From Dehalococcoidia bacterium (lineage in GTDB: Bacteria; Chloroflexota; Dehalococcoidia; UBA2979), in the NCBI GenBank assembly GCA_023228825.1, contig JALOAL010000001.1, positions 188,816 to 252,815 of the forward strand: 64,000 nt of DNA, given 5' to 3'. A model generated the notes under the pieces. It was not told the DNA's origin. It ran no database searches and worked only from the letters and a program-made list of their open reading frames with translations. Shown one piece after another: positions 8,226 through 42,401 of this stretch (position 1 is its first letter; every line of letters begins with the position of its first letter). Made by a program: the position numbers and the translations under genes.

Positions 8226-8245
8226 GGGCGCAGCACGCTGCGCCC
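8226..8245. repeat. REP-like palindromic hairpin GGGCGCAGCACGCTGCGCCC (copy 1)
   Basis: This perfect 8-bp stem with a 4-nt loop lies between convergent genes. An identical 20-mer recurs at 37807-37826. Confidence 0.8.
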
Positions 8246-8254
8246 TGCCGGGGA

Positions 8255-8287
8255 GCGGAGGGAGAAGCGGAGGGAGAAGCGGAGGGT
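8255..8287. repeat. 12-bp tandem repeat gcggagggagaa, about 2.7 copies
   Basis: The repeat is read directly from the intergenic region between the CMD gene and moeA. Confidence 0.7.
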
Positions 8288-8295
8288 CGCGGGCG

Positions 8296-36345: not shown

Positions 36346-36521
36346 CCGAAGGTCGCCTGTAGGCGCGCACGAAGACGTCACCGACACGCTCGGCCATCCT
36401 CACCGCATCATGATGGAGATCGGCTACCCCGAAGGCTTCCCGGGGCCGTTCAGGCGATAGGCCGTTTCGACGCTTCGTCAGTGTGCGATACAGTGCGGCG
36501 GGGGTCACGGAGGGGCCGGGT

Positions 36522-37715
36522 ATGTCGTTGCAGGTCGTCCAACCTCGGATACGCGGGTTCATCTCGCTCAGCGCTCACCCGGACGGCTGTGCGGCCAACG
36601 TGCGTGAACAGGTGGAGGTGATCGAGCGCGCGCGCCTGGAGGGCTCGCTCGGCACCGTGCTCGTCATCGGTTCCACCACCGGCTACGGACTCGCGAGCGC
36701 CCTCGTGGCCTGCTTCGGGTACGGGGCGAAGACGCTGGGCGTGGGCTTCGAGAAGGCGCCGGAGGGCGGCAAGACCGGTACGGCGGGCTGGTACAACGCG
36801 GCCGAGGCCTCCCGCCTGGCGGCGGAACAGGGCCGCACCTACTGCACCATCAACGGCGACGCCTTCTCGGACGAGGTGAAGCGCGAGGTCGTGGACGCCC
36901 TGCGCGCCATGGGCCCGGCCGACACGGTGATCTACTCGCTCGCCGCGCCCCGACGCCGTGATCCGGACGGCACGGTGTGGAACTCAGCCCTCAAGCCCAT
37001 CGGCGAGGCCTACCACGGCCGGGCCTTCGACCTGCGCAACGAGACCGTGACCGAGGCCTCTATTGAGGCTGCCACGCCTGAGGAGATCGAGGCGACGGTG
37101 AAGGTCATGGGCGGCGAGGACTGGCTCGCCTGGATGCGCCTGCTCTCGGACGAGGGCCTGATCGCGCCCGGCGCCCGGGCGATCGCTTACTCCTACATCG
37201 GGCCGGAGGTCTCGGCGCCGATCTACCGCCGTGGCACCATTGGCAAGGCGAAGGAGCACCTGGAGCAGACGGCGCCAGAGGTGGACGCGCTGATGCGCGC
37301 ACACGGCGGCGCGGCGTGGGTGAGCGTGAACAAAAGCGTGGTGACGCAGGCGTCCAGCGCCATCCCCGCGGTACCCCTCTATATGTCGGTGGCCTTCAGG
37401 GTGATGAAGGCGCAGGGGGTGCATGAGGGCGTGATCGAGCAGATCGTGCGCCTGTTCAAGGACCACGCCGGCCCGGGCCGAGAGCCCGCCACGGACGAGC
37501 AGGGTCGCATCCGCCTGGACGACCGCGAGATGGCGGACTCGGTGCAGACGGTGGTGGCGGAGTCCTGGGACCGCATCAGCACGGAGACCATGTCCGAACT
37601 GGCGGACTGGGACGGCTACAAGCGCGACTTTCAGAAACTCTTCGGTTTCGGCGTGGACGGCATCGACTACGACCAGCCGAGCGAGGTGGACCGCCCGCTC
37701 AACGCCGGCGCCTGA
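36522..37715 (+). CDS. fabV: Trans-2-enoyl-CoA/ACP reductase (FabV/TER family)
   Basis: The N-terminus MSLQVVQPRIRGFISLSAHPDGC… is diagnostic of the FabV/TER family. My hand coordinates are ±2 nt here, because my base indexing disagreed with the ORF track by 2 nt in this stretch. Confidence 0.8.
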   Translation: MSLQVVQPRIRGFISLSAHPDGCAANVREQVEVIERARLEGSLGTVLVIGSTTGYGLASALVACFGYGAKTLGVGFEKAPEGGKTGTAGWYNAAEASRLAAEQGRTYCTINGDAFSDEVKREVVDALRAMGPADTVIYSLAAPRRRDPDGTVWNSALKPIGEAYHGRAFDLRNETVTEASIEAATPEEIEATVKVMGGEDWLAWMRLLSDEGLIAPGARAIAYSYIGPEVSAPIYRRGTIGKAKEHLEQTAPEVDALMRAHGGAAWVSVNKSVVTQASSAIPAVPLYMSVAFRVMKAQGVHEGVIEQIVRLFKDHAGPGREPATDEQGRIRLDDREMADSVQTVVAESWDRISTETMSELADWDGYKRDFQKLFGFGVDGIDYDQPSEVDRPLNAGA

Positions 37716-37806
37716 CGGACGGACGCGCCGAGGCGGCGCGGTCCTGCCTCGGGGTGGCGCCCGCCTGACCCTGCTGACCCTGCTGACCCGAACGCCTTCG
37801 GTGGGC

Positions 37807-37826
37807 GGGCGCAGCACGCTGCGCCC
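37807..37826. repeat. REP-like palindromic hairpin GGGCGCAGCACGCTGCGCCC (copy 2)
   Basis: It is identical to the 20-mer at 8226-8245. It lies between convergent fabV and the 459-aa ORF. Confidence 0.8.
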
Positions 37827-37856
37827 CTGCGGGGGCCGGATGGCGGAGGTCCGCCG

Positions 37857-39236
37857 TTACTCCTGCGCTTCCGGGGTGGCTTCCGACTGCTCCTCGGAGG
37901 CGGGCGGCGGAGTGGCCTCGAAGAGGTCGTCGAAGTCGACCAGGCCGTCGGTGGTCGCCAGGCGCCGGCGGGCCTCGGCGAGCATGGTCTCCGGGGCGCC
38001 GGCGCGGGCAGCGTGGGCCACGCGGTACAACTGCGGGGCGGTGACCAGGGCGTAGCCCACCGCCTCCGCCGCCACGCGCAGGGCGTCCACGAACTCTCGC
38101 TTGCGCTCCGTGGGGTGCGTCAGACGCTGTCCATTCGCCACCACAAGGCCCCGAGGCGCGATCGCGCGCGCCTCGATGATGCGGTCCAGGCGCTGGCGCA
38201 GGCGGTAGTGGGGGGCCATGTCCACGGCCTCGGTAGACCCGGCGACCGCGAGTTGGACCGTGGTGGCGCCGTCCGTGAGGACGGGCTCGCCAGAGGGCGC
38301 CTCCGCGCGCTTGAAGCCGATTTCCTCGGCGCAGGCGAGCACGGAAGGCAGGAGCACCGTGTCCCCCGCGGACCACAGTACCGCGCGCAACGCGTGCAGC
38401 GCGGCGGCCTCCGCCTCCGCCGCCTCGAGCGCGGCCTGCGCCTGGTCCACGGTGGCGCGCGCCTGGCGTACCAGCGTCTCGCGCTCCTCCAGGCCTGCGG
38501 GCATGAACTCCTTCGCCCAGCGCGGGTCCACCTCGTCACGGCGGCCCAGGGACTCGGACATCGCCTCCACCATCGCGGAGCCCTCGGGCCCGGCGAGCCA
38601 GTTGGCGCCGGGCTCCTTGGGGTAGGGCATGAAGACGACGCGCCCGTTCAGGACGGGGAACTCCACGCCCACCGGATCGCCGCCCGCGGCTCGGATGAAG
38701 ACGCGCGCGTGCTTGGCAAAGCCGGGCGCACGTTCGTTCAACACCGCGCGGTAAAGCACCGCCTTCTCGAACGTGCCGTAGACGCCGATGAACGGATGGG
38801 CGTGATCCTCCACCGCCACCTGGGTGCCCTCTGAACCGCGCACGGCCTCCTCGTCCCATCCCATGCCGTCCGGGGCGGGGAGGAAGAAGTAGCGGTCGAA
38901 GCCGCCCAGGCCGGTGACGCCGTGGAAGCGGGACTGCGGGGCCAGGAACACGCACACGGTGGCGCCGTTCTCCAGCGCCCGCGCCATCTCGTCACGGCGG
39001 CGCTGCAAGAGCGTGGCGAGGCCGGCCGTGGCGTCCGAGGAGTCGCCGTTCACCACGGGCACGTCCGCGTGCGTCACGAACTCGCCCTGGGCTCGTGCGG
39101 CGGCGCGCACCACGTCAAAGGTGGCGGCCGGGTCCAGGACGATGGCGTGATAGTCCGCGAGGTTGGGCGCGTTGAGGATGGTGTGGTTGTCGATGCTTCG
39201 GTGCTGGAGCCGGTGGCCCAGGGAGAGGACGCGCAC
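37857..39236 (-). CDS. Hypothetical 459-aa protein with an N-terminal alpha/beta-looking domain, a central Ala/Glu-rich coiled coil and a C-terminal domain. I could not assign a family.
   Basis: It is a long ORF with native GC and a plausible start. It is a solitary gene between fabV and ffs. Confidence 0.5.
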   Translation of the reverse strand: MRVLSLGHRLQHRSIDNHTILNAPNLADYHAIVLDPAATFDVVRAAARAQGEFVTHADVPVVNGDSSDATAGLATLLQRRRDEMARALENGATVCVFLAPQSRFHGVTGLGGFDRYFFLPAPDGMGWDEEAVRGSEGTQVAVEDHAHPFIGVYGTFEKAVLYRAVLNERAPGFAKHARVFIRAAGGDPVGVEFPVLNGRVVFMPYPKEPGANWLAGPEGSAMVEAMSESLGRRDEVDPRWAKEFMPAGLEERETLVRQARATVDQAQAALEAAEAEAAALHALRAVLWSAGDTVLLPSVLACAEEIGFKRAEAPSGEPVLTDGATTVQLAVAGSTEAVDMAPHYRLRQRLDRIIEARAIAPRGLVVANGQRLTHPTERKREFVDALRVAAEAVGYALVTAPQLYRVAHAARAGAPETMLAEARRRLATTDGLVDFDDLFEATPPPASEEQSEATPEAQE

Positions 39237-39698
39237 AGTGACTCCTCACAGGGAACGCCGCGAGCCTCGCGGCTGATCTCGCTCGAACGGACAGGCTACT
39301 CGTTGCCACCGCCTTGTGCGACGCGCGCGACGAGCAGCCACGCGGGCGTGCCGAGGCCGGCGACGATGAGGGAGCCACCAGGACCGTTGCCCGAAGGAGC
39401 CGAACATGCTGCGACGGATGAGTGCGAGGGCACCTGTCGCGACCGATCACGTGGGTCCTGCCGTCCCGAGGCCGGCGCGGTCATCGCACGCCGGGAGGCT
39501 GGGAGGGCCGTATAGAGATGGCCGATGACTTCGACACCTTGCCCGAGGAGTAGCGGCCGGATGCCGCGGAGACGGTGCCTGAGGCCGGAGCCCTTGAACC
39601 TCTTGGATCGACGGCGGGAAGGCGTCGGAATGGTGAATATCACAGGGGCGGGCCGCGGGGTCTGTCCGCTTCTTCGGATGCGCTGATAGGATCGAGGT

Positions 39699-39963
39699 GG
39701 TCGTGCTAGGCGGGGCCTTAGCGGCGCCCTGTACCCGCAATCCGCTACAGCGGGGCTGAATGCCCGTCCGAGAACGATCCTGAAGGGACTGCGAACGCCA
39801 GGCGGCGTTGAGAGCCTGGTCCCGTGCGGCGACGTCCAGTGAACCCCGCCAGGGCCGGAAGGCAGCAACGGTAAGCCGGTAGCGTCGGGCGCCACGGGGT
39901 CGCCGGGCTTGAGCCGGCCAGCGAGAGCAAGCCTGAAGGGCCGTCCGACGGCGGGGCACGACC
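39699..39963 (+). ncRNA. ffs: Signal recognition particle RNA, long (Bacillus/Alu-domain) type
   Basis: The domain IV motif CCAGGGCCGGAAGGCAGCAACGGUAAGCC is present. The Alu-domain-like 5' region GUGCUAGGCGGGG…GCGGCGCCCUGUACCCGCAAUCCGCUACAGCGGGGCUGAAUGCCC closely resembles B. subtilis scRNA. The terminal helix is GGUCGUGC/GCACGACC. Confidence 0.75.
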
Positions 39964-40004
39964 ACCCCACACACCACTACCACCGCCCGGTCGAGGAGGC
40001 GCAC

Positions 40005-41063
40005 ATGAGCCGCCGTCGTTCGTCCTCGGCCTCGCGGCGGAAGACCGGCGCCCGCAAGCGTGGACCGGATCAGACGCCCCAGCCGCCTGAGTACCTCAAG
40101 CGCCTGGGCGTGCATCCGCGCAAGGCCCTGGGGCAGCATTTCCTCATCGACGAGTTCCTGCTGGGCGATATCGCGGACGCCGCCGTGCACGATCCCGCCA
40201 CGCCCGTGCTGGAGATCGGGGCCGGCCCCGGCGGACTGACCGAGGAACTCGCCGCCCGCGCCCAGACCGTCGTCGCCATCGAACTGGACGAGGACCTCTC
40301 CGCCCTCACGCGCGAGCGCCTAAAGCGTTTCGACGGCCTGACCGTGCTGGCCGCCGACGTGATGGAGTTCGAGGCGGTCGAACTACTGGAGGAGGCGGGC
40401 GTCGCGCCGGAGACTCCGTACGTCGCGGTCGGAAACCTGCCGTACTACATCACCCAGCCGATCGTCCGGAAACTCCTGGAGGCCTCGGCGCCGCCGGAGC
40501 GCATCGTGATCCTCATCCAGCGCGAGGTGGCGCAGCGCATCGTGGGCGGGCCGGGCAAGGAGTCGCTGCTGTCCATGAGCGTGAAGATGTACGCCGAGCC
40601 GCGCATCCTGTTCGAGGTGCCTGAGACGGCCTTCTGGCCCGCGCCCAAGGTGCAGTCCGCAGTGATCGAGATCGTGCGTCTACCCGCGCCCGCGCTGGAC
40701 CTCACCCGTGGGGAGATCGAGGCGTTCTTCCACATCGTGCGGGCGGGCTTTGCGCAGCCTCGGAAGCAACTGCACAACAGCATCGTGGACGAGAGTGGCC
40801 TGCCCCGTGACCGCGTGGTCGCCATGCTGGAGGAGGCGGGCGTGGACCCCGTGGCGCGGCCGCAGCACCTGGGCCTGGAGGACTGGGAGCGCATCTTTCA
40901 CGCCTTCCAGCGCCAGTTCCCCGGCGAACTCGACGTGACCGAGGGCGCCCGCGACGGAGCGCCGCCGCCCTTCGACCCCGGCGAGTGGGAGACAGACGAG
41001 GCGGACGCCGAGCATGACGCCGGGTACGACGCGGACGCAGAGCCGGAGGACGACCGTGAGTGA
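40005..41063 (+). CDS. rsmA: 16S rRNA (adenine1518/1519-N6)-dimethyltransferase RsmA/KsgA with basic N-terminal and acidic C-terminal extensions
   Basis: The Shine-Dalgarno is GAGGAGG. The SAM motif LEIGAGPGGLT and the KsgA-specific NLPYYIT are present. Confidence 0.85.
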   Translation: MSRRRSSSASRRKTGARKRGPDQTPQPPEYLKRLGVHPRKALGQHFLIDEFLLGDIADAAVHDPATPVLEIGAGPGGLTEELAARAQTVVAIELDEDLSALTRERLKRFDGLTVLAADVMEFEAVELLEEAGVAPETPYVAVGNLPYYITQPIVRKLLEASAPPERIVILIQREVAQRIVGGPGKESLLSMSVKMYAEPRILFEVPETAFWPAPKVQSAVIEIVRLPAPALDLTRGEIEAFFHIVRAGFAQPRKQLHNSIVDESGLPRDRVVAMLEEAGVDPVARPQHLGLEDWERIFHAFQRQFPGELDVTEGARDGAPPPFDPGEWETDEADAEHDAGYDADAEPEDDRE

Positions 41064-41985
41064 GGCCACGTCGCTGCGCCTTGTAGCGCCCGCGAAGATC
41101 AACCTGGCGCTGGAGGTGCTGGGCAAGCGGCCGGACGGCTTCCACGAGGTGGAGACCGTCATGACCACCATCGACCTGGCGGACCGTGTGACCGTGACGC
41201 CTCGGGAGACGGGGGCGGGGCTGGAGGTGGTGCTGACCGGCCCCTACGCCGAGGGCATCGACCCGCATGACGACCTTTCGCGCCGTGCGGCGATCCGGGT
41301 GGCGGAGGCCGCGGGGATCGAGCCGGACGTGCGCATCCAGGTGGAAAAGCGCATCCCCTCACCCGGAGGTCTGGGCGGGGGCGCCTCGGACGCGGCGGCG
41401 GTGATCCGGCTGCTCGACCGGCTCTGGGGGCTGCGCTGGAAGATGCCGCGCCTGGAGGCGATCGCGGCCACGCTGGGATCAGACGTGCCGTTCTTCCTCC
41501 ACGCCGGCGCCGCACGCTGCACCGGGCGCGGCGAGGTGGTGGAGCCGCTGCGTGACATGCGGCCGCTGCGCCTGCTGGTGCTGTTGCCGCCGGTGCCGCG
41601 CCTGGAGCAGAAGACGGCGAAGCGCTACGCCGCGCTGCATCCGCACGACTTCACGAACGGCGACCGCACGAGGCGCCTCGCGGCACGCATCGCGCGTCAC
41701 GCACCGCCGCCCACGGGCGACCTGGTCAACGCCTTCGAGCGCGTGATCGAACGGACGGACCCGGAACTGGTGGCGCACTACGCGCGCTACGGGCAGGCGG
41801 GGGCGCTGCAACTGCACCTCTGCGGGGCCGGGCCGGCGGTCTACCTCTTTATCCGCGAGGACGCGAAGGCCTCCGAACTGCGGCGAGACTTCCGGGCCGT
41901 GGGCGCGACGGTCTTCGAGGCGCGCACGCTGCGCCGGGACGCCATCGCGATCGAGGAGCGCCCGGCGGAGGCCACCGAGGGGTGA
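41056..41985 (+). CDS. ispE: 4-diphosphocytidyl-2-C-methyl-D-erythritol kinase
   Basis: The motifs APAKINLALEV and GHMP-kinase PSPGGLGGGASDAAA are present. The GTG start overlaps the rsmA stop. Confidence 0.8.
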   Translation: MSEATSLRLVAPAKINLALEVLGKRPDGFHEVETVMTTIDLADRVTVTPRETGAGLEVVLTGPYAEGIDPHDDLSRRAAIRVAEAAGIEPDVRIQVEKRIPSPGGLGGGASDAAAVIRLLDRLWGLRWKMPRLEAIAATLGSDVPFFLHAGAARCTGRGEVVEPLRDMRPLRLLVLLPPVPRLEQKTAKRYAALHPHDFTNGDRTRRLAARIARHAPPPTGDLVNAFERVIERTDPELVAHYARYGQAGALQLHLCGAGPAVYLFIREDAKASELRRDFRAVGATVFEARTLRRDAIAIEERPAEATEG

Positions 41986-42401
41986 ACGCAGACCTGATGC
42001 AGAGCCTGCTGGCGGGCTGGGTCTCCGGGGCCGCGGCGGGCCTGGCCACCACAATGCTGGTCCTGGTGTGGCTGGCGCGCAGCCCGGAACGCGCTCGGCG
42101 GCTGCCGATGCAGGTGCGGCTGCCGATCCTGGGCATCGTGGTCGTGAACGCGATGGTGATCACGCTGACGCTGGTGGGGCTGGTGGCGGGAGCGCTGCAC
42201 CACAACACCCGCCCCGCAGATGGGAGCGCGGGGCTGTTCCCCGTAACCCTGGCCGCCATCGTGCTGGCGTCCGCCGCCCTCTACGCCTTCGTCCGGGGCC
42301 GCATCCGGAGCGCGGAGGCGCCGCTGGTGCTGGGCAGCCTGCTGGTCTTCGGCCTCGCCTTCGGCGGCATGCTGCCGTGGCTCGCGGGGATCGAGGTCTA
42401 G
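41982..42401 (+). CDS. Hypothetical integral membrane protein (about 4 TM helices)
   Basis: It is a 139-aa hydrophobic ORF overlapping the ispE stop. Confidence 0.4.
   Translation: MNADLMQSLLAGWVSGAAAGLATTMLVLVWLARSPERARRLPMQVRLPILGIVVVNAMVITLTLVGLVAGALHHNTRPADGSAGLFPVTLAAIVLASAALYAFVRGRIRSAEAPLVLGSLLVFGLAFGGMLPWLAGIEV

Follow-up and report, generated by a model that had tools for sequence, protein, structure and literature searches.

We analysed a single open reading frame (ORF) and its surroundings in a window of 64,000 nucleotides, the window being the whole stretch of DNA that was read. The ORF is flanked by fabV and the SRP RNA gene ffs, and the features at the locus were as follows:

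36483-37715, plus strand: fabV, with three enoyl-reductase Pfam domains, convergent with the ORF
37857-39236, minus strand: the whole ORF, 459 aa plus a TAA stop codon, with a GTG start (from the ORF list)
39242-39247, minus strand: Shine-Dalgarno sequence GAGGAG, 5 nt 5' of the GTG start codon (read from the sequence)
39701-39961, plus strand: large SRP RNA (ffs), scoring 149 bits, divergent from the ORF and followed by rsmA and ispE

Analysis of base composition revealed a GC content of 0.726 and a GC3 of 0.92 for the ORF, compared with GC3 values of 0.89-0.93 for lepA, fabV, rsmA and ispE. An earlier note on this DNA had described a well-formed ORF of native GC between fabV and ffs, and this description was borne out: the ORF is a real gene with a good ribosome-binding site and a GC3 like that of the genes around it, and both neighbours are those named, fabV by its Pfam domains and ffs by its SRP RNA score. 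The ORF product is identical to P0001, a protein that a Dehalococcoidia MAG lists as hypothetical protein M0R73_01090.

The SRP RNA was of the large type (Bacteria_large_SRP, 256 positions). The longest rsmA/ksgA ORF (39909-41063, plus strand), which opens with a TTG at 39909, overlapped the 3' part of this RNA, and the ATG at 40002 is probably the true rsmA/ksgA start. The stretch from the start of the ORF to the SRP RNA gene (39237-39700) was unusually long for a non-coding region, at 464 nt; no Rfam family reached its gathering threshold there, and the promoter scan, which included this stretch, returned no sigma-70-like promoter. The sole terminator-like site in the terminator scan was located inside the ORF, at a level expected by chance. 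Because one homologue of the gene is found directly downstream of lexA, the same 464 nt were searched for SOS boxes; neither GAAC-N4-GTTC nor CTGT-N8-ACAG was present, and SOS regulation of the ORF was rejected. Inference of a role from operon membership was also rejected, as the ORF converges with fabV on one side and diverges from ffs/rsmA on the other, and the contexts examined contained no recurrent partner gene, in agreement with the earlier view of the gene as solitary.

The convergent gap between fabV and the ORF was 141 nt long and contained three hairpins. The palindromic features recorded in this region, none of them assigned to a strand, were:

37722-37743: hairpin with the core GCGCCG-AGG-CGGCGC, just after the fabV stop codon and unique in the window
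37807-37826: hairpin GGGCGCAGCACGCTGCGCCC, a perfect 8-bp stem (GGGCGCAG-CACG-CTGCGCCC) in the fabV/ORF gap
37842-37855: short palindrome GGCGGAGGTCCGCC, directly after the ORF stop codon (read from the sequence)

A second exact copy of GGGCGCAGCACGCTGCGCCC was identified at 8226-8245, with 0.11 matches expected by chance, and (C)TGC(C)GGGG comes after each copy. The hairpin at 37807-37826 is likely to be a bidirectional terminator; it is also a repeated palindromic element to which the term 'REP-like' can fairly be applied, although the 64 kb contained no more than two copies. The ORF had been reported as flanked by REP-like hairpins. This held in part: one of the three hairpins on the fabV side is repeated, and the upstream side has only a short palindrome. 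A direct repeat, CTGACCCTG (about 2.8 copies, 37765-37789), was present between two of the hairpins in the gap, and at 8250-8290, after the GGGCGCAGCACGCTGCGCCC copy at 8226-8245, there are about 2.5 tandem copies of the short repeat GCGGAGGGAGAA.

The structure of the protein was predicted with AlphaFold2 using 60 homologues, and the resulting model was very confident (mean pLDDT 93.4). The model reproduced the three-part layout proposed from the sequence, with an alpha/beta domain from residue 1 to about 230, a long helix at 249-285 and a second alpha/beta domain at 291-440. On the DNA these parts correspond to:

38532-39236, minus strand: N-terminal domain, residues 1-235, with a class I glutamine-amidotransferase-like / ThuA / STM3548-like alpha/beta fold
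38367-38531, minus strand: linker and long Ala/Glu-rich helix (249-285) from the secondary structure of the model, with invariant P238 and W240
37917-38366, minus strand: C-terminal domain, residues 291-440, with a PD-(D/E)xK restriction-endonuclease-like fold of the FokI-cleavage/Mrr type
37860-37916, minus strand: acidic, low-confidence C-terminal tail, residues 441-459 (pLDDT 48-56), of varying length in the family alignment

In the model, the N-domain adopts the flavodoxin-like alpha/beta fold of class I glutamine amidotransferases, and the C-domain has the alpha-beta-beta-beta-alpha-beta core of the PD-(D/E)xK fold. A Foldseek search of the PDB with the N-domain gave STM3548 (2gk3, E 5.6e-5) and STM1381 as the best matches, followed by GATase subunits, the GH42 trimerisation domain and ThuA. 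The predicted structure shows the protein to consist of a GATase1/ThuA-like domain, a long helix and a PD-(D/E)xK restriction-endonuclease-like domain. This is a new domain architecture made by joining two known folds, and no description of a GATase1-like domain combined with a nuclease fold was found in the literature. Residues 249-285 formed a single 37-residue helix in the one-chain model, with an Ala-rich heptad (L249, V256, V263, L270 and A277 at position a; A259, A266, A273, L280 and L287 at position d). As the model has one helix per chain, a coiled coil would need a partner chain, and the helix is a putative dimerisation coiled coil.

To place the protein among its relatives we carried out an exhaustive profile search of a library clustered at 50% identity. 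It identified 1826 family representatives at E <= 1e-3, many spanning the full length, with 168 passing E <= 1e-30. The close family comprised Chloroflexota MAG proteins of 440-480 aa, all labelled 'hypothetical', and more distant members came from Crocinitomicaceae, Brocadiales and other Dehalococcoidia. One branch, which includes WP_049126869.1, is carried on conjugative IncF plasmids of Enterobacter hormaechei; used as a query, WP_049126869.1 gave 1631 matches in Klebsiella, Pseudomonas, Francisella, Vibrio, Acinetobacter, Sulfurimonas and other genera, all of them a 'hypothetical protein' with no Pfam domain. These searches substantiate the proposal of an uncharacterised family, as every homologue in public sources is a 'hypothetical protein' and no curated library names the family; literature searches with the domain combination, STM3548 and the Enterobacter accession returned no description of it. 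One member of 620 aa (P0163) has part of an NTP_transferase domain N-terminal to the family N-domain, and this fusion could be real or could be an assembly or gene-call artefact.

No significant match to the window protein was detected in Pfam, NCBIfam, PADLOC or PHROGs, and Pfam gave no match to GATase, ThuA (PF06283), GATase1_like (PF07090) or Mrr_cat even at E <= 1. PDB searches with the single sequence and with the family profile returned coiled-coil noise only, the viral structure library gave nothing at E <= 1e-3 and only weak matches to phage 'restriction endonuclease'/Mrr entries, and the phage genome collection held no homologue. The PADLOC-DB 2.0 defence-protein HMMs did not match the window protein; ten distant members and the Enterobacter member gave noise-level matches only, on the helix, and a weak CARF match of the Enterobacter member in this region is probably noise as well. 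Comparison of the family profile with FokI by hhalign, using a verified FokI sequence, revealed no sequence relationship (probability 0.2%), and the link to FokI is therefore structural only. The corresponding probability for an Mrr_cat protein was 38%. At sub-threshold level, 2/33 distant members reached Mrr_cat (E 0.022) and one reached NucS_C (E 0.028), and no member tested attained the Mrr_cat (PF04471) gathering threshold. The earlier note had matched no part of the protein to a known family; this stands for curated sequence libraries but not at the level of fold, where both domains are of known type.

Conservation in the N-domain was examined within the Chloroflexota clade of the window protein and across the family. 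The residues N17, D28, R79, R80, E83, A121, P122, G198 and P204 were invariant in the clade, and D35, E83, Y116, G137, G198 and P204 were conserved family-wide. No clade column in this domain had Cys at 30% or more. A family-wide Cys at position 96 was 51% conserved and is located inside a strand, not at the nucleophile elbow. Class I amidotransferases typically carry an H-P-E motif, and the window protein has H147-P-F at the corresponding place, with Phe instead of Glu. The N-domain lacks the Cys-His-Glu triad of class I glutamine amidotransferases, and a catalytic amidotransferase was rejected on the basis of these replacements. A wider alternative is that the N-domain is an enzyme, whether an amidotransferase of GATase1/ThuA type, an amidase or a sugar-modifying enzyme, and that the C-domain fold is a scaffold only. 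We regard this as improbable: the N-domain is the most conserved part of the protein, with many invariant residues and a dN/dS down to 0.18, and H147-P-F recalls the amidotransferase motif, but the absent clade Cys, the loss of the motif Glu and the lack of any GATase, ThuA or GATase1_like match in Pfam argue against catalysis, and its structural neighbours STM3548, the GH42 trimerisation domain and the IFT52 N-domain are non-catalytic or uncharacterised. The likeness of the N-domain to STM3548/STM1381 (GATase1_like), ThuA-like proteins, the GH42 trimerisation domain and the IFT52 N-terminal domain is one of fold, and unlike the window protein none of these is fused to a nuclease fold.

We also examined the C-domain residues that would form the active site. 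Residues 317, 330, 332 and 342 were assigned to this site by alignment and strand position, not by superposition, and residue counts are given out of 47 sequences for the wider family and out of 60 for the Chloroflexota clade of the window protein. The wider family displayed a D...E-x-E...K-x-x-Q signature, with D317 just before strand beta2 (34/47), E330-x-E332-G on beta3 (E330 in 41/47, E332 in 38/47) and K342-x-x-Q345-L on the next helix (K342 in 32/47, Q345 in 30/47). This was accompanied by K/R362-G-x-L-V-G-N368 on beta4 (N368 in 45/47) and an R378 present in all 47 sequences. The whole signature is kept in the Enterobacter IncF plasmid member. In the window protein, positions 317, 330, 332, 342 and 345 are occupied by E, A, A, P and R, and the altered elements are:

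38286-38288, minus strand: E317 at the N-terminal end of beta2, the site of the family 'PD' aspartate (from the alignment and the model strands)
38241-38249, minus strand: A-V-A, residues 330-332 on beta3, the site of the family E-x-E metal-binding pair, lost in the subclade
38190-38213, minus strand: P-H-Y-R-L-R-Q-R, residues 342-349, a clade-specific Arg-rich helix replacing the family K-x-x-Q-L-x-x-Y

Having E317 together with A330-V-A332 and no Lys, the window protein does not carry the PD-(D/E)xK catalytic motif. Across the Chloroflexota clade the helix reads P/A-H-Y-R-L-R-x-R, with H343 and Y344 in 60/60 and R345 and R347 in 59/60 sequences; R362, R378 and E391 were invariant or nearly so (E391 in 60/60), and E336 was present in 42/60. 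The window protein retains E317, E336, H343 and E391, which on sequence grounds could constitute a non-canonical catalytic site.

Comparison with known nucleases placed these changes in context. FokI has separate recognition and cleavage modules and cleaves on dimerisation. The C-domain resembles the FokI cleavage domain and N.BspD6I / R.BspD6I (Type IIS) in fold, with no detectable sequence relationship, and FokI D450...D467-x-K469 corresponds to D...E-x-E in the family and to E...A-x-A in the window protein. Unlike FokI, the family lacks DNA-recognition domains, and in the contexts examined it was never adjoined by a methyltransferase gene. The beta3 lysine of the (Q/E)xK motif in Mrr_cat (PF04471) / AF1548-type Type IV enzymes is absent here: the family has E at this position and the window protein has A. 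The active site of BamHI consists of D94, E111 and E113. The wider-family D...E-x-E, with Glu for the canonical Lys, would mirror this arrangement, although BamHI was not among the top structural matches.

To follow the gene through its own lineage, the clade was scanned using one genome per species. This yielded at least 106 species, from which 79 loci were kept, all in Chloroflexota MAGs. Among loci with at least 37% identity, 64/65 retained rsmA/ispE upstream and/or fabV/lepA downstream, and the locus order in the window lineage was lepA-fabV-X-ffs-rsmA-ispE, where X is the ORF. Below 37% identity, 11/14 loci had neither rsmA/ispE nor fabV/lepA beside the gene. The P-H-Y-R-L-R motif was found in 77/79 loci, including the non-syntenic basal ones. 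E-x-E was kept in 45/79 loci, among them every basal locus, and position 330 was V or A in 29/79, all of them syntenic and including every close relative of the window protein. Within a far larger family, the window copy represents a derived branch. The simplest order of events is remodelling of the helix, fixation at fabV/ffs and then loss of the glutamate pair in a subclade. Comparison with the two closest relatives, which also lack E-x-E, gave dN/dS values of 0.20-0.22 (C-domain), 0.18-0.27 (N-domain) and 0.35-0.44 (helix); the segment made up of linker and helix was the least constrained part (0.35-0.84). A dN/dS of about 0.2 rules out a pseudogene, and the gene is not decaying.

These data bear on whether the window protein still cleaves nucleic acid. 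It could be an active nuclease with a remodelled site made of E317, E336, H343, Y344 and E391, in which H343 takes the place of the helix lysine. Catalytic residues are well known to migrate within the PD-(D/E)xK fold, and this reading would account for H343, Y344 and E391 each being present in all 60 clade sequences, for the retention of E336 in many of them, for the acidic residue kept at 317 in most members with V-x-A at beta3 and for the strong purifying selection on the C-domain. It nevertheless seems rather unlikely. In 29 loci both beta3 carboxylates have given way to Ala/Val in an otherwise constant domain, which is the usual signature of lost metal binding, and the columns tabulated showed no acidic residue that the V-x-A subclade had newly fixed in compensation. 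The absence of both beta3 carboxylates and the helix lysine speaks against metal-dependent cleavage of the canonical kind. Points in favour of a retained nucleic-acid-binding surface are the Arg-rich helix, which is invariant, the residues R362 and R378, and the strength of the constraint.

The wider family presented a different genomic setting. Its members were solitary genes scattered strain by strain. In 11 sampled contexts, reported here as raw counts without a baseline, 8 held toxin-antitoxin, nuclease, Cas1, IS or integrase genes, and 3 were ordinary metabolic neighbourhoods. The individual contexts included a Gp49/HTH (HigBA-like) pair, an Mrr_cat/NA-iREase gene with DUF5131, Phd/PIN with a NACHT-like gene, and a RES toxin with an Mrr-like gene and an AAA_21/AAA_15 ATPase. 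IS3/IS21 elements and a GNAT/DUF1778 pair accompanied the Enterobacter plasmid member, and the Francisella member occupied a phage-type integrase island between malQ and glyQ. Together these contexts suggest an accessory, conflict-type gene. In Francisella philomiragia the island was a three-gene insertion (locus L093, 6863-10425) made up of a phage-type integrase, a 288-aa ORF and the homologue; the 288-aa ORF lies 35 nt upstream of the homologue and could be a partner gene in that branch. In a further locus (L089, 5334-6872), a solo 512-aa Cas1-domain protein was encoded directly upstream of a member, with no other cas gene in the 12-kb locus, which may represent a casposon-like or stand-alone Cas1 context. 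At the locus of the lexA-linked homologue (L007, 7108-9326), lexA and a 71-aa ORF immediately precede the homologue and share its strand, and this adjacency hints at SOS-linked expression in that organism.

Typical wider-family members most likely act, by analogy, as sensor-plus-nuclease effectors. Can2 / Card1 likewise join a sensor to a PD-(D/E)xK nuclease; their sensor is a CARF domain, whereas the N-domain here is GATase1-like, and they are CRISPR ancillary proteins, whereas the window family displayed no consistent CRISPR association (one solo Cas1 in 11 contexts). By analogy with FokI and with CARF-nucleases such as Can2, the wider family may follow a sensor-dimeriser-nuclease design. 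An anti-phage or anti-plasmid defence role for the gene in the window genome itself, like that envisaged for its accessory-island relatives, would agree with the strain-by-strain scatter of the wider family and its frequent proximity to toxin-antitoxin, Mrr, Cas1, RES or integrase genes. We consider this role very improbable for the window clade: defence genes are normally patchy and turn over fast, and the opposite was observed here, with a core syntenic housekeeping locus in 64 of 65 related species rather than a patchy or island-type distribution, together with native composition, loss of the catalytic pair and no match to a PADLOC model.

On balance, we favour the window protein as a catalytically inactive, dimeric, nucleic-acid-binding 'pseudo-nuclease' with a housekeeping role, a reading that we hold by a modest preference. 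The typical member of the wider family is a solitary accessory-island gene with an intact D...E-x-E...K-x-x-Q nuclease signature. In the ancestor of one Chloroflexota lineage, mostly Dehalococcoidia, the gene would have been fixed at fabV-ffs/rsmA as a vertically inherited core gene; the active-site helix would have been remodelled in that lineage to the invariant Arg-rich P-H-Y-R-L-R, and the window subclade would then have lost both metal-binding glutamates (E-x-E to A-V-A). The analysis establishes both folds, membership in the family, the replaced residues, the conserved synteny and the purifying selection. From these we infer that the long helix dimerises the protein, that the remodelled C-domain binds nucleic acid and has lost catalysis, and that the N-domain may provide a ligand- or partner-binding module. 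A more far-reaching proposal, which we put forward tentatively as a possibility of clearly lower probability, is that the wider family, with members on Enterobacter/Klebsiella plasmids and in Pseudomonas, Vibrio, Francisella and other genera, is a previously unrecognised single-gene defence/conflict nuclease in which a GATase1-like sensor and a coiled-coil dimeriser are coupled to an Mrr/FokI-like effector, and that the window gene is its exaptation from a weapon to a housekeeping nucleic-acid-binding factor.

These analyses replace the label 'hypothetical protein' with a concrete, testable picture for a family of 1826 representatives absent from Pfam, NCBIfam and PADLOC. Members with the intact motif on conjugative Enterobacter plasmids and in Pseudomonas make a nuclease or defence role open to direct laboratory test. 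The Chloroflexota loci form a natural series, from intact E-x-E off the locus, through a fixed locus with a remodelled helix, to E-x-E loss, which makes them useful material for work on the repurposing of nuclease folds. For the window genome the practical gain is modest, namely better annotation and not a new function. Beyond the ORF, the block 3' of ispE (loci L001-L003; about 41982-42401 in the window) was syntenic across the lineage and consisted of a 133-145-aa ORF without a Pfam match, a PHP_C protein and a DinG-like RNase_T/helicase fusion; the 133-145-aa ORF represents another conserved unannotated gene.
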